Assembly: GCA_026395995.1 (NCBI GenBank)
Contig: JAPLXQ010000010.1
Coordinates: 2,587 to 66,586, forward strand
DNA: 64,000 nt
Origin: Candidatus Nomurabacteria bacterium
Lineage (GTDB): Bacteria; Patescibacteriota; Minisyncoccia; Phycocordibacterales; UBA9973
Reading direction: 5' to 3'
Below are positions 4,898-36,874 of this stretch, in pieces. The position numbers and the translations under genes were made by a program. A model generated the notes under the pieces. The model was not told the origin of the DNA. It saw only the letters and a list, made by a program, of their open reading frames with translations, and did no database searches. How positions within the stretch are numbered: the first letter of the stretch is position 1; every line of letters starts with the position of its first letter.

Positions 4898-5656
4898 GAA
4901 TTACAAGGTCGAACCTTGTAAAAACTTTATTATATTGTTATCATGCATATATGACTAGAAGTATAGAATTTTCTATTGGTGAATTTTATCATCTCTATAA
5001 TAGAGGTACTGAAAAGAGAATCATTTTTAATAATAAAAATGATTATGAAAGATTCACTCTTCTTCTATATTTATGTAATAGCCTGAACAAAGTAGATTTA
5101 GGTGACTACCTAAGACAAGGTCGAACCTTGTTAGAACTTTTTGATTTAGAAAGAAATAACACCTTGGTTGATATCGGTGCATATTGTTTAATGCCAAATC
5201 ATTTCCATATTTTAGTTAAGGAAAAATTAGAGGGAGGAATTAGTTTATTTATGCAAAAACTAACAACAGCATATACTATGTATTTTAATAAAAAATATAA
5301 TCGTACAGGTACCTTATTTCAAGGGAAATTTAAAGGCAAACATGTAATAGGTTACAATTATTTAAAATATTTATTTGCATATATTGGATTAAACCCTATT
5401 AAATTAATAGATAAAAATTGGAAAGAAAATGGAATAAAAAATTTATTGGAAGCAAAAAACTTTTTAAGTAAATATGAATTTTCTAGTTTTGTAGATTTTT
5501 GTGATATATCAAGAAAACAAAAAGTTATTTTAGTGCTGGATAATTTTCCAAAATACTTTCTTTCTAAAAAAGAATTTAATGATTTTATAAATGACTGGTT
5601 GGATTATAGAGAACTAGAATTTTAGTATTTTTTATTTTCCACCAAGAATTTTTAAT
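4898..5656 (+). mobile_element. Insertion carrying a RAYT/IS200-like HUH transposase, bounded by a 42-bp exact (ca. 65-bp degenerate) direct repeat that duplicates the ruvA 3' end
   Basis: Repeat gcttcttttatttttgcattagtgtcgacagcagtgacattt at 4856-4897 and 5657-5698; subterminal hairpin acaaggtcgaaccttgt at 4905-4921. Confidence 0.6.
4951..5625 (+). CDS. HUH (Y1) tyrosine transposase, IS200/IS605 TnpA / REP-associated tyrosine transposase (RAYT)-like
   Basis: YHLYNRG...LMPNHFHILV (HuH) ...YIGLNPIK (cf. RayT DYIYINPVKHG); paralog of 21346-22011. Confidence 0.7.
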   Translation: MTRSIEFSIGEFYHLYNRGTEKRIIFNNKNDYERFTLLLYLCNSLNKVDLGDYLRQGRTLLELFDLERNNTLVDIGAYCLMPNHFHILVKEKLEGGISLFMQKLTTAYTMYFNKKYNRTGTLFQGKFKGKHVIGYNYLKYLFAYIGLNPIKLIDKNWKENGIKNLLEAKNFLSKYEFSSFVDFCDISRKQKVILVLDNFPKYFLSKKEFNDFINDWLDYRELEF

Positions 5657-8684: not shown

Positions 8685-9125
8685 ATGAATAGTACATTAA
8701 ACAATCTAGCACTACTTTCTTTTAATAGAAAAGCTAGGAAAATCAGTAAAGACATTGGGGTAATAAATTGCATGGACGTGTTTTTTATACCATATTGTGT
8801 AATTCGTGCAGGTGAAACTTTATTTATTTGGAGTGAGGAGAATGGTTTTCATTCAGTCCTTACTGAAAATGATAAAGAACTTGCATATCTGGTAGATTTT
8901 CCAGAAAAATACGGTTACGATGAAGTTTACCATTTTGGGATTTTGAATGCTGACAAGACAACTCTTTCTATTTTTCGTTGTTATGACCAGCTTACTCACA
9001 AGAAAGAAGTGTTGCCTTATGGTTTACAATTCCACACTGATGAGTATAGAAAAGAGCGAGATTTCGAACTTCAACAAGAAAGCGAACTTCCATTTATGCA
9101 ACAAGGTCAAGGTTCCAGATTGTAA
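8685..9125 (+). CDS. Hypothetical protein
   Basis: ORF track; followed by hairpin terminator 9131-9175. Confidence 0.3.
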   Translation: MNSTLNNLALLSFNRKARKISKDIGVINCMDVFFIPYCVIRAGETLFIWSEENGFHSVLTENDKELAYLVDFPEKYGYDEVYHFGILNADKTTLSIFRCYDQLTHKKEVLPYGLQFHTDEYRKERDFELQQESELPFMQQGQGSRL

Positions 9126-25295: not shown

Positions 25296-25494
25296 AATGT
25301 TTGGCGCGAAATACAGGACTCGTTGCGCTGTGAGGGGTGTATTCTTGACCCGAACTCCCCGTACTATTCACGATACCATTTTATTTTCACTTTCTCAAAT
25401 ATAAGCTCAAAAATAAGGAGAGTTGGGTGAAATACCCTTGTTTTATCAGCTTGATACTTTTTTAGATTCAAAAAATGTGCAATAATTCATTGTA

Positions 25495-25755
25495 ATGAAA
25501 AAGAAACTAGAAAAAGAATATACTGGTGCAAAATCTAAAAAAGAGTTTTTGAAAATAATGGAGCGTTATGACTCTGGTAAGGGAGTAGAAATAATTATAG
25601 ATGGGAAAGATGGTAAACTTCAATCTTATCAAAAGATTCTATCTAGGACTGAAAAATCGCCTCAAATTGGGCGTAAACGGCTTAACATCAGCTTTTCATC
25701 TGTAGATCAAGATAATGAGCAGTTGTTACATTTTCTTCTTAATAAAACGAAGTAA
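25495..25755 (+). CDS. Hypothetical protein (island cargo)
   Basis: ORF track. Confidence 0.3.
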   Translation: MKKKLEKEYTGAKSKKEFLKIMERYDSGKGVEIIIDGKDGKLQSYQKILSRTEKSPQIGRKRLNISFSSVDQDNEQLLHFLLNKTK

Positions 25756-25779: not shown

Positions 25780-27342
25780 ATGAGTAATAAAGCAGATGAA
25801 ATACAAAAAGTAAGAGAGATTTGTTTAGTGAATGCCGAAGCTTCTTTGTCTGTTGCTGAAAGAGAATTAGATAAAGGTGTAGATAATATTTGTTTTCATT
25901 TAGCATTACTTGCTTTAGAAGAAATAGGTAAGTCAATTTTAGTAGCAGTTGGGTATACTATTTCAGTTACAGGTAAGGAAAAGGAAGATATTAAAAATGC
26001 TATGGATGATCACGTAAAGAAGATATTTTGGGCGCTCTGGAGTGGTTTTATTTTTGGACATGCTAGTCCCGAAGATGTTGAAAAAACAAAAGGATTAGCA
26101 ACTAGTTTACACGAAAATAGACTTACATATTTATATACTGACCCAAACGACTTAATTGACCCTAAAGATAAAATCCGTGTTGGTGAAGCAAAGACACTAA
26201 TAGATTTAACACGATTACGACTTGAAAGAGAAAAAACTACTACTGAAGTACATGAATTTAATGCAGACGAAACCGAACAATTGAAATGGTTTTTTTCTGC
26301 ACAAGAAGACCCTGAACAAAGAAAACAAATTTTTAGTAATGTTTCAATTGAGAAGTTAAAAGAATTTCAAAATGGTAGAGATTGGATAAAATGGTTATAT
26401 GATGCATTCAAAGAAAATAGAGATGCGATGTTAAAACTTGCACAACAAGAACTTTCAAGAGGGAGACCAGCAACTGAAGTTGAAAGACTTGAACCAAAGT
26501 ATAAATTGCGCTTTCGTATACAAAGTCAGTCTCACACAATTAGAGATAATGCTTTTGTTGATTGGAATAAAGAAGTTACAGGTACAAAGATATACAAAAC
26601 AACACCAAAAAATTTACCAATTTACGCAAAATCTGAACTAGTTATTGAACTTATACTTTATAAAAGTACTTCACCGGCTTCTCTATGGGATACTGGTTTT
26701 ACTTTAGCAAAAACATTTGTGAATGCTATAAACATAGGAACAATGGGGCTATTCTGGTGGAATATGCCGAAAGATGTTGAGAAGTACTATGATGAAATAA
26801 CGGACCTTGAAGCCGATAAAAGTGAAAATATAAAATTGAAAATAGTACCACAAAAAAGACTAATGATAGATTGGGGAGAAGATGCAAAAATGACTTTGAA
26901 AAAAGAAAATATAGGTGAAATTTCTTTAGTCGTTGCATTTCTTATGTATCAACAAGAAAAAGTAAAGAGTTTTATGGAGGCGTATGCTTTAGGGTTAACC
27001 TTTTTAAGTAAAACAGATATTCATTTAAGATTAGAAGTAAATGCATTTAGTGAGTTTTTCAAAGCTTTCAAAGAAGCATTGACTGGTTTGGGTGATTGGG
27101 ATGGTAAAACTGACTTATTAGAAACCTCTAAAAAGATTTTTGAAAAGGACTTTCCAGCATTTAAGCAACTGGAGGCGACTATACAAATTGGGCTTAACTT
27201 GAAACTAGAACAGGGTGATTTGTTATATAATATAACTTTGACTGAAGTTGTTGCTATGAAGATATATTGTGATTTTTATATAAAACTTAAAGCTAGGGAT
27301 TATTTCAAAACTGAATTAACTCAAGAAGTTAAAGAAAAATAA
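25780..27342 (+). CDS. Hypothetical 520-aa protein; N-terminal region faintly reminiscent of AbiV/HEPN-type abortive-infection proteins (unverified)
   Basis: ORF track; segment CFHLALLALEEIGKSILV; no NTPase motifs. Confidence 0.3.
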   Translation: MSNKADEIQKVREICLVNAEASLSVAERELDKGVDNICFHLALLALEEIGKSILVAVGYTISVTGKEKEDIKNAMDDHVKKIFWALWSGFIFGHASPEDVEKTKGLATSLHENRLTYLYTDPNDLIDPKDKIRVGEAKTLIDLTRLRLEREKTTTEVHEFNADETEQLKWFFSAQEDPEQRKQIFSNVSIEKLKEFQNGRDWIKWLYDAFKENRDAMLKLAQQELSRGRPATEVERLEPKYKLRFRIQSQSHTIRDNAFVDWNKEVTGTKIYKTTPKNLPIYAKSELVIELILYKSTSPASLWDTGFTLAKTFVNAINIGTMGLFWWNMPKDVEKYYDEITDLEADKSENIKLKIVPQKRLMIDWGEDAKMTLKKENIGEISLVVAFLMYQQEKVKSFMEAYALGLTFLSKTDIHLRLEVNAFSEFFKAFKEALTGLGDWDGKTDLLETSKKIFEKDFPAFKQLEATIQIGLNLKLEQGDLLYNITLTEVVAMKIYCDFYIKLKARDYFKTELTQEVKEK

Positions 27343-27354
27343 AATAATTGGGAT

Positions 27355-29205
27355 TTAATTTACAATTTGTTTAATTATCTCTCTTATTTCCTTACTTTCA
27401 GCATTTGTATCTTCAGTAAGATATGTTGTCAGTTTTTTATTACAGAACTCAATTGTTTCTGGAAGGCCTTTTTTGATACCAAGATAATGTTCAAGGTCTC
27501 CATTTTTTAAGATATATATTTTTTTCGTGTATTCTGTATTTATTTTTGTTTCCCAGTTTGTATTTCTTAATTTGAACGCTGTAATCTCAGTAGAGCTTCT
27601 TAAACCAATTCCTTTTTCAGCTGGGTAAAATCTTTCAATAGCAAAGTCTAAATCACCTATACAGTAAACTAAAAGACCAAAACTTTCAAATAATTTACTC
27701 CATTCGTTATAGCCACCTTTTCCACCCATATATAAAATAGCGATTTGCTGGTCTAGTTCTGGATATTTTTCTTGTATTATAGACTTAAAGAAATATCGGT
27801 CAGTATCACCCTCAACTAAAAGAACTTTTTTTGCGAAGAAAGCATAAGTGGATCTAGTGTTATCAAGTATTTTAATTAAAATTCTTTGATCAGTAGACAA
27901 AGTGGGTGCTTTTATCTCTGTGTTTCCAGAGCTATTTAAGGAAAAACGTTTTACTTGGTTTATTGTTGAAGAGTTTATTAAGGCCTCCGAGTGAGTTACT
28001 AGAATATACTGGCAACCTTGTTCTTTATTCAAATCTCTAACAACTTGCAAATACTCATTTTGAAATTGGTAGTGTAAATGTATTTCTGGTTCATCAATAA
28101 TAACTAACCCCCCTTTTAGGTTACCACGACCGTAAGCTTCAAAAACAAGATGGATGATTGCTTTTTGTCCCGCACTTAAACTGTTAATATTAGCTAAAAC
28201 TTTCTTTCTTCTTATGTCAAAAAACTCAAATGAGTACTGCCATGTCCGGAGATCAATTAGTTTTATTTTACATTCAAGATTAACGACTTGTAGTTTTTTA
28301 TTTATTGAGAGGATAAAATCAAGGTTATTAGCTTTTGTTTCACATTCAGCTTCAGTTAGTTTTTGTGAAATTAGATTAAAATGTTTTTCTGCAATTTGCA
28401 GTCTTACTAAAGAAAAAATACTTGGTTCTGTTTGGTCATTTTCGTTAAGACTTTTTGAAAAATCTTTAGTTTTTATTGTTTGTATTTGCTGAATTGGATG
28501 CTGATCTTTTAGCGATATTGAATTAGTAAATGCGTGGTAATTTCTGTAGCTACTTATAAGAGTGAAGCTATCATATATTGAAGTTAGTAAGTCTTCCGGG
28601 TGTTCTAAATTATGAAGAGATATGAGTTCTTTGTAAAAATTGTAGTCAGAAAGATATTCAAAACCAAAATCTTGCGAACCATCTACAAGCGTAACAGTAA
28701 ATTTTCCTGTATCTTTATTCAAACTTATATCAAATACATACTCACTTTGTACAGTAGTATTATTGGTAATTGTTTTTGTAGTATAAGAACTTGCTATAGC
28801 ATTAAGTTTAGTAATATTATCTTGAATATGTTTTATGTTTTGTAAATCAATCTCATCAAGAGCTATTACTAATCTAATTTTTTGAGGATCATCTGGTGTG
28901 TCCCAGTTTGGGTCTAGTCGGAAGTGTGAATAAGATTGAGTATTTATTGCCGATAGTATTTTTTGTTTTTCTTCATGTTTAAGATTTTCTCTACCAGAGT
29001 ATGAATCTTGATTTGTGTTGTATTGTTTACATAAAATTCTCTTAAAAATAAAGTTAATTATTTCAAGAGCCGTTGATTTTCCTGCTCCATTTTCTCCTAT
29101 AATAATATTTAATCCATCTTCAAAAATCACTACTTCAGCATCGGTAAGGCTGTTATAATATTTGAAACTTAATATATTTGAAATCTGAAGTGATCTTATT
29201 TTCAT
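27355..29205 (-). CDS. OLD-family ATP-dependent endonuclease (N-terminal ABC-type ATPase + C-terminal Toprim), class 1-like
   Basis: Walker A GENGAGKST, Walker B VIIDEPEIHLH, H-loop VTHS, Toprim motifs LLVEGDTD and GDLD. Confidence 0.7.
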   Translation of the reverse strand: MKIRSLQISNILSFKYYNSLTDAEVVIFEDGLNIIIGENGAGKSTALEIINFIFKRILCKQYNTNQDSYSGRENLKHEEKQKILSAINTQSYSHFRLDPNWDTPDDPQKIRLVIALDEIDLQNIKHIQDNITKLNAIASSYTTKTITNNTTVQSEYVFDISLNKDTGKFTVTLVDGSQDFGFEYLSDYNFYKELISLHNLEHPEDLLTSIYDSFTLISSYRNYHAFTNSISLKDQHPIQQIQTIKTKDFSKSLNENDQTEPSIFSLVRLQIAEKHFNLISQKLTEAECETKANNLDFILSINKKLQVVNLECKIKLIDLRTWQYSFEFFDIRRKKVLANINSLSAGQKAIIHLVFEAYGRGNLKGGLVIIDEPEIHLHYQFQNEYLQVVRDLNKEQGCQYILVTHSEALINSSTINQVKRFSLNSSGNTEIKAPTLSTDQRILIKILDNTRSTYAFFAKKVLLVEGDTDRYFFKSIIQEKYPELDQQIAILYMGGKGGYNEWSKLFESFGLLVYCIGDLDFAIERFYPAEKGIGLRSSTEITAFKLRNTNWETKINTEYTKKIYILKNGDLEHYLGIKKGLPETIEFCNKKLTTYLTEDTNAESKEIREIIKQIVN

Positions 29206-29261
29206 TGTGTAATTTTAGCACTTTTTAATTAAAAACCTATTTTTATGGGATAGATTATCTG

Positions 29262-29475
29262 CAAACTAAAATCTACCATTATCAACCATATTTATTAAAC
29301 TAAAAATTATATATTATTAGAGATTTCTAATGTAGTATTATCATATAATTTCCAATAAAATCTGTTGTTTCCTATTATTTGCCTTGTGCTTAAAATCCAC
29401 CATTATCCACTATGTTTTTGTGGGTTAAAATTAGATAATCCCTTTACTTAAAAATCCACGATTATCAATGCTATT
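29262..29475. repeat. Three to four direct repeats (iterons) of a ~23-bp unit AAAATCYACSATTATCMA
   Basis: aaaatctaccattatcaaccat (29266), aaaatccaccattatccactat (29392), aaaatccacgattatcaatgct (29451); weaker copy ~29355. Confidence 0.55.
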
Positions 29476-29479
29476 ATTA

Positions 29480-29860
29480 TTAAAGCCCATGACTATGCAA
29501 ACAAAAGGTATACTCTTTTTCGGTAGCTTTTCTTGTTCTCTTTTCAGTATCTATTATTTTAGGTTGTGACTTTTCCCATTCCGCTGGTGTTTGAAAGTCT
29601 GAAAGGGTTAGTGGTGTTTTAGGAGAACTATAATTAAATGTTGGAGTAGTTGAGTTAGCATAGATTTCTTGTTCATAGTTTATCCAAGAACAATTATGTT
29701 TTATTATTGCTGGTCTTACTTGAAACCAGCCAAACAAAATAATAATTACTATTACTATTGCCATTACTTTTCTTTTCTTTGCTAATTCACTTTTAATTTC
29801 TCTCATTCTATCTACAAAAAGTTCTTGTATTTTTTTCATATTTTGGTCCTCATTATTCAT
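29480..29860 (-). CDS. Small membrane protein (single TM)
   Basis: ORF track. Confidence 0.3.
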   Translation of the reverse strand: MNNEDQNMKKIQELFVDRMREIKSELAKKRKVMAIVIVIIILFGWFQVRPAIIKHNCSWINYEQEIYANSTTPTFNYSSPKTPLTLSDFQTPAEWEKSQPKIIDTEKRTRKATEKEYTFCLHSHGL

Positions 29861-30249
29861 ATTTTAATTAAAAAGATAATTATAAAAATCACTAGAACTG
29901 ATAAAAATAAGGACCAATTAAATAATCTTGTAAGAGCAGTTTCTGTATTTTTATCTATTGAGTTAACTGATTGAGTAGTTAGTTGGTTTGTATTCTCTGT
30001 TTTAGGTACGACTGTTATTTTTTCTGCTTGTTTAGCTTCTTGAGTTGGAATAACTTGTTCATTTTTTATTTCTGGTTGTTGTGCTTTAGTTGGAGCTGGT
30101 TTTATTGTAACTTGTTTAGCTTTGGTTTTATTTACCAAATCTTGTAGCTGATATAATGCATCATTACCAACTGTTGATGTTAGTGAATTTGCATGGGAAA
30201 TTCCCGGAATAATCATGGCTAGTATTAAAATTAAGATATATTTCTTCAT
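29857..30249 (-). CDS. Small secreted/membrane-anchored protein (signal peptide + C-terminal TM)
   Basis: Start set at MKKYILILILAMIIPGISHA; 4-bp overlap with downstream gene. Confidence 0.3.
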   Translation of the reverse strand: MKKYILILILAMIIPGISHANSLTSTVGNDALYQLQDLVNKTKAKQVTIKPAPTKAQQPEIKNEQVIPTQEAKQAEKITVVPKTENTNQLTTQSVNSIDKNTETALTRLFNWSLFLSVLVIFIIIFLIKI

Positions 30250-30524
30250 AAGATTTTTGTTATTTTTAATCCTATGAGTAGAAATCAAAAATCCCACCAC
30301 ATAGGTGAGAGCTTTCGCTCTCTGCATCCGTTTCCAGATACAGCTCGTCAAAGCATCCCTATATGATGGGGTTTCTAGCTTTGACGAGACTTTCGGCCAT
30401 GTCTTTATTTCTAAAGGGTTAGGCCACTTATATATTAAATTGTATGTTTATGATAACATATTTATATCTCTTATTGAATTAACTATTTACTTTAAGTCGG
30501 GGATACACCGCTTATTGAATATCA

Positions 30525-32305
30525 ATGACTGAATTATCAAAAACAGAAGAAAGAACCTTAAAAGTAGCTCTTTATTTAAGAGTGTCTACAGACGAACAAG
30601 TTGAAAAATTTGGGCTCTCTTTGCAAAGAGATGCTTTGATGTCTCTTATAAAATCAAAGGGCAATTTAATTACTGGTCAGCCAGTCTGGGCTTTTGCAGG
30701 GGAGGAGCATGTTTATATTGACGGTGGGGTTAGTGGCACAATTTCGCTTGATGATCGGCCCAGTTTTGCGAAGCTAAAAGAAGCTATCATTTTTTCATCT
30801 CCGGATAATAAACCTTTTGATATTGTGGCTGTTTATAAAATTGATCGTTTTGCCAGAAAATTGAAAATACTCCTTGATGTTATAGATTTTTTTGATAAAA
30901 ATGATGTTCAATTTATTTCAGCAAGTGAAAGTATAGACACTTCTACTCCTTTTGGAAAAGCGATGCTAGGAATTATTGGAATCATAGCCGAGCTTGACCG
31001 AGATACGATACTTGATAAAACAAGGCGTGGGCGCTATCAGTCTGCTTTATCGGGTGTTGTGATGGGTAATTCTGCATCTTATGGATACAGAAAAGATGAA
31101 AATAAGCATCTTGTAATTCTCAACGAAGAAGCTGATTGTATAAGAAACATATTTAATTTATTTGTGAATGGTTGGAATTCTGAAAAAATTGCTAGACATT
31201 TAACTAATTCTGGAATTTTATCACCAGAAGCGTCTGGTATAAAAAAACGAAAAAGAAAAGGCGGAACCAAACATAAGAACCCTCTCACTTATTGGAGGTC
31301 AGAAACAATACGAAGAATTTTATTGAATGAAATTTATATAGGCAAAATATATTTTGGTAAGTCTAAAGATGGTAAAGAGTTGGAAAAAAGTGAGTGGAAA
31401 ATTGCAGATCAGGAAGCCCCTATAATCGTTGATTTGCTGATCTTTGAAAAAGCGCAGAGACTTTTAGAAAATGTTAAACATCAGAGAAGAAATAGCCCTA
31501 AAAATAATCATACTTATCTACTCACTAGTCTTTTAAGGTGTGATTGTTGTTATAAAATAGAAAGAGATTCTAATAGATCTGTTTGGGGAGGTGAGCCCAA
31601 AAAGCTTGATAGTGGAGGAAAAACTTATTATTACAATTGTAGAAGAAAAAGAAAAGCTAAATCGTATTTTCCTTGCTCTTCGTTATCTTTACCAGCTGAT
31701 GAAATAGAAAATTATATAGTAGATTTTTGTTTACAGATTGTAAGTTCACCTATTGCTGTGTTTAGGTATCAACAAAATCTTGCTTCAAGTAAAAATCACA
31801 TTAAACTTCTTCGTAAAAAAAGTGAAGATGCCGTAAGGTTGATTCAAGCAAGTGAAAATAGGCAAAAAAATTCAAAGGAGCAACATCGTGTTGGTATTAT
31901 AAAAATGCCACAATTACAGAAATATTTGCTAGATGAGGAAAACACAATAAAAAGATTGAAATCCCAACAAAAGGAAATTGAAGTTGAACTTTCAAAAGAA
32001 AGCACATCAGAACGTTATGCTCAAACCTTTGAATTACTTTCAACTAAATATGTAGGGGCTTTAGAGGAAATAAAAAAGAACCGCGAAAATTTGTACGACT
32101 TAATTCATTTACTGATTGAAGAGATTGTTGTGATAACAAGGCCAGTTACTCCAGAAGATAAGGTTGCTGGAATAAAAAAAGAAGGGCAAGAAATACCCGA
32201 TGCACTTCATATAAAATTGAAATTACCGCAGGATATTATAAAGAAATTAGCTGAATCCACTCTAAAGAATTCTGTTGCCGGTTCGGGGCAAGAACTCATC
32301 TCTGG
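30525..32305 (+). CDS. Large serine recombinase (integrase); ORF reads on through tRNA-Val to 32372
   Basis: N-terminal resolvase catalytic domain ALYLRVSTDEQ, recombinase domain, Cys-rich zinc ribbon, C-terminal coiled coil; ~590-615 aa. Confidence 0.8.
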
Positions 32306-32378
32306 TGCGAGGTACAGGACTCGAACCTGTGACCTTCCCGGTGTAAACGGGTTGCTCTACCAACTGAGCTAACCTCGC
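32306..32378 (-). tRNA. tRNA-Val (anticodon TAC)
   Basis: Acceptor GCGAGGT/ACCTCGC, anticodon loop TTTACAC, T-arm ACAGGTTCGAGTCCTGT, CCA encoded. Confidence 0.8.
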
Positions 32379-33457: not shown

Positions 33458-34294
33458 ATGAAAAAAAAGATATCAGTCTTATATTCAAACAAAGACATTT
33501 TGGTCATAAATAAACCAGCGGGGATTTCGGTCCACGGTGACGGTAGGAGCGATGTGGAAACTTTAGCAGATTTGATATTGGCGGAATATCCAGAGATGAA
33601 AGACGTAGGTGAACCGATGGAAATAGATATCGGTGGTGGTGAGAAGAAAATTATATATCGTCCTGGAATAGTACACAGACTCGACAAAGATACGAGTGGA
33701 GTTCTTATCTTGGCTCGCAATCAAAAAGCTTATGAATATTTAAAAGAGCAATTTCAAAATAGGGAAGTGAAGAAAACTTATAATACTCTCGTCTATGGAA
33801 ATATGAAAAATGATTTTGGTATTGTGGATGCTGGTATCGGACGTAGTCCGAGTGATCCTAGAAAGAGAATTGCTTCACGTGGTAAGACTGGCAAGATTCG
33901 TGACGCAGTAACTGAATATAAAGTTTTGAAAAGAATTTCAGTCGGGAAAAGGTCGGACCTTAAGAATTCAAAAAGGTCCGACCTTGAGGGGACTGGAATT
34001 CAAGCACCTCACCCCAGCCCTCTCCTTAGCGAAGGAGAGGGAGAAGAAAAATTCACTTGGCTCGAAGTTAAACCAAAAACAGGACGCACACACCAGATCC
34101 GCGTGCATATGAAATTCCTAAATCATCCTGTCGTAGCGGACCAATTATATACTCCAAAGGACGCCACAACACCTTTTGGCATCTCCCGCCTAGCACTTCA
34201 TGCTTCATCTATTGAATTTAAAAACCTCAAAGGGGAAACCATCAAAATAGAAGCCCCACTACCGGAAGATTTGGAAAAAATACTTGAAAAATAA
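33458..34294 (+). CDS. RluA-family 23S rRNA/tRNA pseudouridine synthase with in-frame palindromic-repeat insertions
   Basis: HRLDKDTSGVLILARN catalytic motif; insertion at 33947-34044 encoding VGKRSDLKNSKRSDLEGTGIQAPHPSPLLSEGEGEE. Confidence 0.8.
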   Translation: MKKKISVLYSNKDILVINKPAGISVHGDGRSDVETLADLILAEYPEMKDVGEPMEIDIGGGEKKIIYRPGIVHRLDKDTSGVLILARNQKAYEYLKEQFQNREVKKTYNTLVYGNMKNDFGIVDAGIGRSPSDPRKRIASRGKTGKIRDAVTEYKVLKRISVGKRSDLKNSKRSDLEGTGIQAPHPSPLLSEGEGEEKFTWLEVKPKTGRTHQIRVHMKFLNHPVVADQLYTPKDATTPFGISRLALHASSIEFKNLKGETIKIEAPLPEDLEKILEK

Positions 34295-36448: not shown

Positions 36449-36874
36449 ATGACAGTAACAAATATAAAACTTAGTCCAGTAGATATGGATGCCCGAAAAA
36501 AGCTTGATTTTAAAGCCGGGGATACTATTCGCGTGTGGTCAAAGATTCCAGACGAAAAAGCTACAAAAAAGGGAGATGCACAAAAATTCCGCTCTCAGGC
36601 TTTTGAAGGAATCGTATTAGCTCGTAAACACGGCACAGAAATCGGAGGTACTTTTACAGTTCGTAAAGTAGCTAGTAGTGTCGGAGTAGAAAGAATTTTC
36701 CCAATTTTTTCTCCAATGATCGACAAAGTAGAAATCATCAAGAAAGCAAATGCCGGACGCAGTAAGCTCTACTATGTACGTACAAAAGCGGTCAAAGATG
36801 TTCGCCGAAAACTCCGTTCAGTAGCAATGTCCGCAGAACACGAAATGGAACCAGAAGTAAAAGAAGAAAAATAA
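36449..36874 (+). CDS. rplS: 50S ribosomal protein L19
   Basis: FEGIVLARKHGTEIGGTFTVRKVASSVGVERIFPIFSPMIDKVEI matches L19 core. Confidence 0.85.
   Translation: MTVTNIKLSPVDMDARKKLDFKAGDTIRVWSKIPDEKATKKGDAQKFRSQAFEGIVLARKHGTEIGGTFTVRKVASSVGVERIFPIFSPMIDKVEIIKKANAGRSKLYYVRTKAVKDVRRKLRSVAMSAEHEMEPEVKEEK

Follow-up and report, generated by a model that had tools for sequence, protein, structure and literature searches.

A direct-repeat array as a putative protein-binding site in a tRNA-Val-integrated large serine recombinase element of a CPR bacterium

As described for the pSC101 and RK2 oriV and for the type I repeats of P4 ori and crr, iterons are direct repeats of ~18–22 bp in AT-rich DNA of mobile elements, and in P4 the repeat clusters are irregularly placed. 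Direct, helically phased half-sites characterize omega of pSM19035 (WATCACW heptads), ParR/parC of plasmid R1, and the OmpR/PhoB boxes. Terminase sites, for example, lambda cosB, consist of irregularly spaced short repeats. Elements of the tycheposon type reportedly occupy 6–10 kb at the 3′ end of a tRNA gene and carry a serine or tyrosine recombinase at one end together with swappable defence or accessory cargo. In this study, we analysed a repeat array in a 64-kb stretch of DNA (hereafter, the window) from a metagenome-assembled genome of Candidatus Nomurabacteria (CPR) that resembles each of these systems in some respect. With iterons, it shares direct repeats of similar length, AT-rich DNA, and a mobile location, and its irregular placement recalls the P4 clusters. 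The direct, helically phased half-sites are common to the array and to the omega, ParR, and OmpR/PhoB systems, and operator and centromere arrays additionally share with it a conserved ~90-aa protein on the same backbone, whose gene is flanked by sites in a related element. Three irregularly spaced short repeats are also found in lambda cosB (R1–R3) and in the SPP1 pac boxes. Finally, similar to tycheposons, the element that carries the array lies at a tRNA 3′ end and has a terminal recombinase and swappable cargo.

Three direct copies of AAAATCYACSATTATCMA lie on the + strand at 29268–29285, 29392–29409, and 29451–29468, exactly where the original prediction had placed them, and their start-to-start distances of 124 and 59 bp confirm the irregular spacing. 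Every pair of these 18-nt cores differs at 2 of 18 positions. Beyond the cores, a weaker similarity reaches ~30 nt, which gives the units R1 (29267–29296; core AAAATCTACCATTATCAA, 63–80 nt upstream of the OLD start codon), R2 (29391–29420; the best-conserved copy, with both TCC half-sites present), and R3 (29450–29479), all on the + strand. R3 abuts the stop codon of a 126-aa gene, and TGCTATTAT is found near it at 29469–29477 (+). Their host spacer (29206–29479; 274 bp, 24% GC) is bounded by the start of the OLD gene (27355–29205, −) and the stop of the 126-aa gene (29480–29860, −). The AT-rich intergenic location and the flanking genes, an OLD-family nuclease and two small membrane/secreted protein genes, are therefore as originally described.

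The array is distinct from the rest of the window. When up to 3 mismatches are allowed, no further match occurs in the 64 kb, and no copies are present on the − strand. Similarly, with a weight matrix, the three repeats score 32–34 bits, and the remainder of the 64-kb window reaches at most 12.5 bits. Since the motif is unique within the 64-kb window by both measures, it is not a generic AT-rich repeat there; scattering of the motif across the genome had been named in advance as fatal to the prediction. In a first-order Markov simulation of a 274-bp intergenic region with 24% GC, none of 1000 spacers contained three non-overlapping 18-mers at a pairwise distance of ≤2; the closest set, at a distance of 3, arose once. 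Tandem Repeats Finder detected no tandem array in the repeat region. A larger tandem unit was discarded on this result and on an alignment of ~60-bp units, in which the core alone is shared. The weaker fourth copy that had been proposed did not hold up. Its best candidate, TAAAATCTGTTGTTTCCTATTATTTG at 29356–29385 (+), scores 0.9 bits versus 29–38 bits for the three true copies, and its half-sites are 9 bp apart instead of 10 bp. This candidate retains the AAAATCT, TTTCC, and TATTATTT blocks with a 1-nt shift and is aligned with R1–R3 by MAFFT; it may at best be a decayed relic of a repeat unit.

Based on the alignment of the copies, each ~30-bp unit consists of three 10-bp blocks on the + strand, which in R2 are AAAATCCACC, ATTATCCACT, and ATGTTTTTGT. 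Two head-to-tail WWWTCC half-sites one helical turn apart, reading AAAATCC.. and ATTATCC.., are followed by a T-rich block. Conservation within the motif is highest at the TCC/GGA trinucleotides. This 10-bp head-to-tail geometry suits a protein or a small oligomer that lies along one face of the helix. RNA folding of the spacer was no better than that of shuffled sequences on either strand (z = 0.12 and 0.01), and the same was true for the repeat region of the related element L109 described below (z = 1.34 and 0.09). Moreover, there is no Rfam match within 29206–29479 at E ≤ 5, and the spacer contains no credible ORF; the longest ones encode 20 and 28 aa and lack conservation. The lack of RNA structure on either strand favours a role at the DNA level over that of a structured RNA, and the folding and hairpin results rule out a structured RNA or a terminator. 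A reading of the units as promoters was also rejected; sigma-70-like sites are fewer than in shuffled sequences, and properly spaced hexamers are absent.

The array sits inside a discrete ~7.0-kb large serine recombinase (LSR) element integrated in tRNA-Val. At the right junction, tRNA-Val(tac) (32303–32378, −) receives the 21 nt of its 3′ end from the element. At the left junction, a relic of the tRNA-Val 3′ end, TGGCGCGAAATACAGGACTCG (25302–25322, +), is identical to 32303–32323 at 18 of 21 positions and adjoins a tRNA-Arg. Both ends are thereby delimited, in agreement with the mobile-element location proposed originally. Rejoining the inner ends yields an attP-like site with a 14-nt inverted repeat, GTTCGGGGCAAGAA (32281–32294) and TTCTTGACCCGAAC (25342–25355, +), whose arms are complementary at 13 of 14 positions, stand 48 nt apart, and centre on the shared TACAGGACTCG. 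The LSR gene (30525–32372, +) carries the Pfam domains Resolvase, Recombinase, and Zn_ribbon_recom and matches the phrog_95 integrase (1.7e-94). The last ~70 nt of its ORF are the antisense strand of tRNA-Val, and the C-terminus of the LSR would consequently change on excision.

Between these ends, the order is an 86-aa ORF, AbiV, OLD, the repeats, the 126-aa gene, the 130-aa gene, a LOOT RNA, and the LSR gene. The cargo consists of an AbiV-family HEPN protein (25780–27342, +; Pfam HEPN_AbiV 38.7 bits; NCBIfam AbiV_defense 42.3 bits, cut-off 27) and an OLD-family ATPase/TOPRIM nuclease (27355–29205, −; Pfam AAA_15 and OLD-like_TOPRIM; PADLOC Old 1.9e-29). The genes of AbiV and this class-1-like OLD nuclease are convergent, with a gap of 12 nt. 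The 130-aa (30249→29857, −) and 126-aa (29860→29480, −) small membrane/secreted protein genes lie downstream of LOOT. Profile scans of the element proteins return only OLD, AbiV, the LSR, and unknowns, and no recognisable transcription factor is among them.

The original prediction had also considered recombinase binding. This reading fails, as the motif bears no relation to the arms of the attP inverted repeat, GTTCGGGGCAAGAA and TTCTTGACCCGAAC. An att or res site of the LSR was dismissed because the units are direct repeats located 1.0 kb from the LSR gene and 2.8–4 kb from the junctions. Likewise, an array of the transposon-end type (Tn7/Mu) was dismissed because no inverted copies exist anywhere in the 64 kb.

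Two further observations concern the element and its site. Three copies of the palindrome TTTTAATTAAAA are present in the 64 kb, all inside the element (27870–27881, 29223–29234, and 29862–29873), versus an expectation of 0.25, and none of 100 shuffles gave three. One copy precedes the OLD ATG by 17 nt, and another precedes the ATG of the 126-aa gene by 2 nt. This palindrome could be a second, dimer-type operator or a mere reflection of the AT-richness of the element. In addition, the neighbours of the integration site at 33458–34294 and 36449–36874 are an RluA-family pseudouridine synthase and ribosomal protein L19, which also adjoin the related elements L112 (7352–8629) and L113 (4636–5843). 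These common neighbours indicate that related LSR elements occupy a homologous tRNA site in several CPR genomes.

The LSR belongs to a large CPR-wide family, for which a homolog search returned 318 members, and we compared six of its elements, including the five closest. The LSR of all six ends in an antisense tRNA, and identity to the LSR of the window is 58% in L109 (P0124), 57% in L110, 54% in L111, 52% in L112, 51% in L113, and 41% in L106. LOOT is present in L109, L110, L111, and L112 and absent from L113 and L106. Homologs of the 86-aa protein are encoded by the former four (52% identity, E = 4e-26 in L109), and L113 and L106 give weak matches. An exact 21-nt repeat (2365 and 10722) marks the two ends of L111. 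Relatives differ in the cargo between the left end and the LOOT operon: L111 encodes a Fic/RhuM protein, L112 has genes related to metals or redox, and those of L109 are unknowns. The cargo slot thus behaves like a hotspot.

The closest relative, L109, has the layout of the window without AbiV and OLD: its left end is followed by two unknown cargo genes, the small gene (+), a spacer, a gene for a 239-aa membrane protein (−), LOOT (−), the LSR gene (+), and the tRNA, with LOOT divergent from the LSR. DNA homology between the window and L109 spans the left end, the small gene, and the LSR, and other intergenic DNA no longer aligns. However, two units, TTAAATCCCACATTTTCCCATATTTTTT and TTAAATCCGAGGTTTTCCGCTGTTTTAT, make up essentially all of the 112-nt spacer that separates the small gene from the LOOT-operon gene in L109. 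These units align without gaps to those of the window and share the invariant pattern AAATC..TT.TC..T.TT. They stand 45 bp apart, so the spacing differs from the 124 and 59 bp of the window. With a matrix built from the window units only, the three best matches in L109 (7409, 7865, and 7910) fall on a single strand, in a stretch of 530 bp that surrounds the small gene. This clustering was reproduced in 2 of 2000 shuffles, which ignore the AT-richness of intergenic DNA. Individual L109 scores of 10–16 bits are within the shuffle maxima, and the significance lies only in the clustering. Reciprocally, a matrix from the two L109 copies ranks R2 first of ~128,000 window positions. L109 thus contains two or three copies of the motif, which flank its counterpart of the 86-aa gene. 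A gap of 4–15 nt separates the stop codon of the final LOOT-operon gene from the start of the array in both elements, even though the final genes are not homologous. Collectively, the sequences of these two elements, and of two only, indicate that the motif and its position are conserved.

In contrast, neither the motif nor an obvious analogous array was found in L110, L111, L112, L113, or L106, whose LSRs are 41–57% identical; the array is accordingly not a universal feature of the backbone. A scan of viral contigs for the exact motif returned 87 singletons and no clustered arrays. A scan of metagenome contigs for two copies gave 13 loci; the ones inspected had no relation to the array and were for the most part repetitive or coding DNA of very low GC. 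A blastn search of the spacer against phages and plasmids gave chance matches only (E ~ 0.1–1). A widespread repeat family was therefore discarded as an explanation.

These results bear on the possibility that the array is a functionless relic of local duplications in an AT-rich spacer. R1 and R2 are 74% similar across 47 nt, and their weak similarity extends to about 47–60 nt, as in a segmental duplication. The possible decayed fourth unit, the lack of the array in distant family members, and the lack of a homolog of the repeat region in the phage, plasmid, viral, and metagenome collections are in line with such an origin. However, the 18-nt cores are identical at 16 of 18 positions while their flanks have decayed to ~60% identity, and a related motif occupies the same backbone position in L109, where the LSR is 58% identical and the other intergenic DNA cannot be aligned. 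We consequently regard a relic as unlikely.

In a replication reading, the array would be the iteron-type origin of the excised 7-kb circle, with an initiator that binds the repeats and melts the adjacent AT-rich DNA. The three 18-nt cores correspond to the at least three direct repeats of ~17–22 bp expected of iterons (three or four when the relic unit is counted), the surrounding DNA has 24% GC, and the element is excisable. Furthermore, R2 contains TTATCCACT, which matches the DnaA box at 8 of 9 positions. However, Pfam, NCBIfam, PHROGs, and PADLOC revealed no Rep, primase, or helicase among the element proteins, and the adjacent Rep- or ParB-like gene whose presence had been suggested as a check is missing from the results of all four libraries. 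Pfam and PHROGs also returned no Rep, primase, or helicase for the two scanned L109 cargo proteins. The spacing is irregular and unconserved, and L109 has just two adjacent units without an AT-rich spacer between them. A DnaA-box cluster or a chromosomal origin was rejected separately; the one 8/9 and four 7/9 boxes are no denser than in the window at large, and the cumulative GC skew shows no turn at this site. Because the whole spacer is AT-rich, no single unwinding element stands out or can be singled out. An iteron origin is thus highly improbable, and the proposed replication function is not supported, given the missing Rep gene, the irregular spacing, and the single 8/9 DnaA box. The partition site that had been suggested fares no better, since the element proteins include no ParA/ParM-type NTPase and no ParB/ParR-type protein. 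The N-terminal ABC-type ATPase of OLD fits OLD/GajA/AriA-type models and not ParA.

The location of the array, directly upstream of the OLD gene on the same strand, raises the question of whether it serves as an operator for this toxic gene, with a repressor or activator that binds R1 (−63 to −80) and loops to R2 and R3. Upstream regulatory sites typically lie at such distances. An extended −10-like sequence, TGCTAAAAT (29212–29220, −), is positioned 6 nt before the OLD ATG, and there is no Shine–Dalgarno sequence; based on these features, the OLD mRNA looks leaderless. Similarly, the 86-aa gene is preceded by an extended −10-like TGCAATAAT at about 25475–25486 (+) without a Shine–Dalgarno sequence. 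These −10-like sequences stand 6–8 nt before the ATG of the two genes, and the arrangement suggests that both mRNAs might be leaderless. OLD homologs number in the hundreds across phyla (57–75% identity). The closest ones (70–75% identity), in L089, L090, and L092, lie in other tRNA-linked or defence islands in CPR, and neither the repeats nor LOOT are present in these three contexts. In particular, L089 (73% identical) has a comparable intergenic region upstream of OLD and shares TGnTAAAAT-N6-ATG with the window; it keeps TGnTAAAAT beside the ATG and lacks the motif. TGnTAAAAT therefore goes with OLD and the repeats do not, which places the junction of cargo and backbone between the OLD promoter and R1. 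Conversely, the motif is present in L109, which has no OLD gene. Collectively, these results indicate that the array belongs to the backbone and that the link to OLD implied by the original prediction is coincidental; an OLD operator is most unlikely. A link to the adjacent 126-aa gene was also pursued and dropped, as only two distant homologs were found and no related context was seen.

On the other side of the array lies the LOOT operon. LOOT RNA (Rfam RF03000) is found at 30307–30425 (−) with 88 bits versus a gathering score of 46.4. It is followed by a terminator-like hairpin plus T-run (30310–30292), and the 130-aa gene starts 58 nt past its end. LOOT is present in 5 of the 7 sampled elements of the LSR family, with the relatives carrying it at 8744–8871 (−) in L109, 5422–5549 (+) in L110, 6845–6969 (+) in L111, and 5212–5339 (−) in L112. 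All five copies end 58–68 nt upstream of the start codon of a same-strand gene for a signal-peptide or transmembrane protein, and these proteins are not homologous to one another. Rfam types LOOT as an sRNA. On these elements, it looks like a cis-acting leader, similar to a riboswitch or an attenuator, rather than a free-standing sRNA. A guide-RNA function was considered and set aside, as LOOT has no complementarity of ≥9 nt to the repeats or the att sites. The open-access literature yielded no published link of LOOT to recombinase elements or CPR, and its LSR-element context appears to be new to the literature.

Since the array follows this operon, it could also act in its transcript, either as an unstructured GGA motif in the 3′ UTR (GGAUAAUGGUGGAUUUU, − strand) recognized by an RNA-binding protein or as a rut-like tract, that is, a C-rich, G-poor + strand sequence that promotes Rho termination. 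The position 4–15 nt past the last stop of the operon in both elements, the conserved orientation relative to the operon, the unstructured sequence, and the conservation of TCC/GGA above all other positions are consistent with an RNA-level role. In contrast, one or both GGA are lost in R1 and R3, the third L109 copy is on the far side of the convergent small gene, where a 3′ UTR of the LOOT operon could not plausibly extend, and the window has no + strand gene that reads into its array. Such a role is very unlikely.

The backbone encodes one conserved small protein that might bind the repeats. Its 86-aa gene (25495–25755, +) has homologs in L109, L110, L111, and L112, and the family shares the invariant C-terminal motif DN.(E/Q)LLHFLL.K. 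An exhaustive HMMER search of 1.84 billion representatives returned only 7 matches, and no relative was found in Pfam or the PDB. No ribbon-helix-helix, helix-turn-helix, or winged-helix signature was detected, and the AlphaFold2 single-sequence model (pLDDT 57) is too poor for a fold search. The repeat motif and the 86-aa gene co-occur in the window and in L109, and the protein lacks a recognisable DNA-binding domain. It is the sole element-encoded candidate for a binder of the array. It could equally be the recombination directionality factor (RDF) of the LSR, perhaps without DNA binding.

A further reading is DNA packaging, in which the array would be a pac- or cosB-like site for the small terminase of a helper phage on a satellite-like element. 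In L110 (2267–4613, −), the gene of the 86-aa homolog is directly followed by genes for TerS and TerL. The terminase genes match the small terminase phrog_51 (2.5e-16), with Pfam Terminase_2 above cut-off, and the large terminase phrog_2 (1.9e-28), and no capsid or portal gene is recognisable in L110, which covers ~10 kb between two tRNAs. Terminases without capsid or portal suggest that the family includes phage-satellite-like CPR elements. In L110, terS starts right after the 3′ end of the small gene, exactly the position that the units occupy in L109, and the anti-phage defence cargo is typical of satellites. However, L110 itself lacks the motif, no viral contig contains a clustered motif array, and searches of IMG/VR with the LSR and with the small protein yielded no relatives; even the assignment of the family to satellites is putative. 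We therefore judge a packaging site distinctly unlikely. The same low probability applies to a broader proposal in which the array would be the packaging or replication hand-off site of a new phage-satellite-like CPR family with a tRNA-targeting LSR, a LOOT leader ahead of membrane-protein genes, the ~90-aa protein as binder, and defence genes such as AbiV and OLD exchanged beside the array.

The presence of the motif at the same place in a related element suggests that the array is probably a protein-binding site of the element backbone. The phased half-sites, the conserved core with decayed flanks, the same position in a diverged relative, and the lack of RNA structure are the features from which we infer a protein-bound DNA array; the identity of its binder and the effect of binding are likewise putative. 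The element backbone comprises the LSR, LOOT RNA with its membrane-protein operon, and the conserved ~90-aa protein. A protein or a small oligomer would bind the repeats along one helix face. The bound protein, with the 86-aa protein as the candidate, would organise or insulate transcription where backbone modules and cargo meet; it might block read-through across the cargo border in either direction or autoregulate the small gene. The location of the array, with the last gene of the LOOT operon on one side and the swappable cargo on the other, suggests such a regulatory or insulating role. This account, a putatively protein-bound DNA array of the backbone with this role, is a tentative one at somewhat less than even probability. 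Regarding the original prediction of a binding array on a mobile element, the mobile location, the uniqueness of the motif, and the related motif in L109 support it, whereas the origin, partition, and recombinase readings attached to it are not supported.

As an orphan array, the repeats alone are a modest finding, and their value lies in the context that they expose. In a small CPR element driven by a recombinase, the array shows where the conserved backbone gives way to exchangeable defence cargo, and CPR mobile elements and gene regulation are almost unstudied. Moreover, with five elements that carry it, the LSR element family provides a defined genomic setting for the orphan LOOT RNA. If the pairing of the 86-aa protein with the 30-bp site is true, it would provide a new small DNA-binding fold and a handle on the regulation or mobilisation of these elements.

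Finally, we compared the array with the known systems introduced above. Unlike iterons, it lacks an initiator gene on the element, regular helical spacing, and a convincing DnaA-box cluster or unwinding element, and its counterpart in L109 has two adjacent units. Compared with the omega, ParR, and OmpR arrays, its half-site period is 10 bp instead of 7 or 11 bp, no partner ATPase is present, and binding is putative. The array consequently does not qualify as an iteron array, for want of a Rep, or as a parC/omega-type system, for want of a Par. For lambda cosB and SPP1 pac, the likeness extends to the terS and terL genes beside the small-protein gene in L110; in contrast, the element of the window encodes no terminase, and the terminase-bearing L110 is without the motif. 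Small tRNA-integrating cargo elements include the Prochlorococcus tycheposons (bioRxiv 10.1101/2020.12.28.424599). The element of the window differs from them in its CPR host, in the lack of a recognisable replication module, and in its possession of a LOOT leader and a family-specific small protein.
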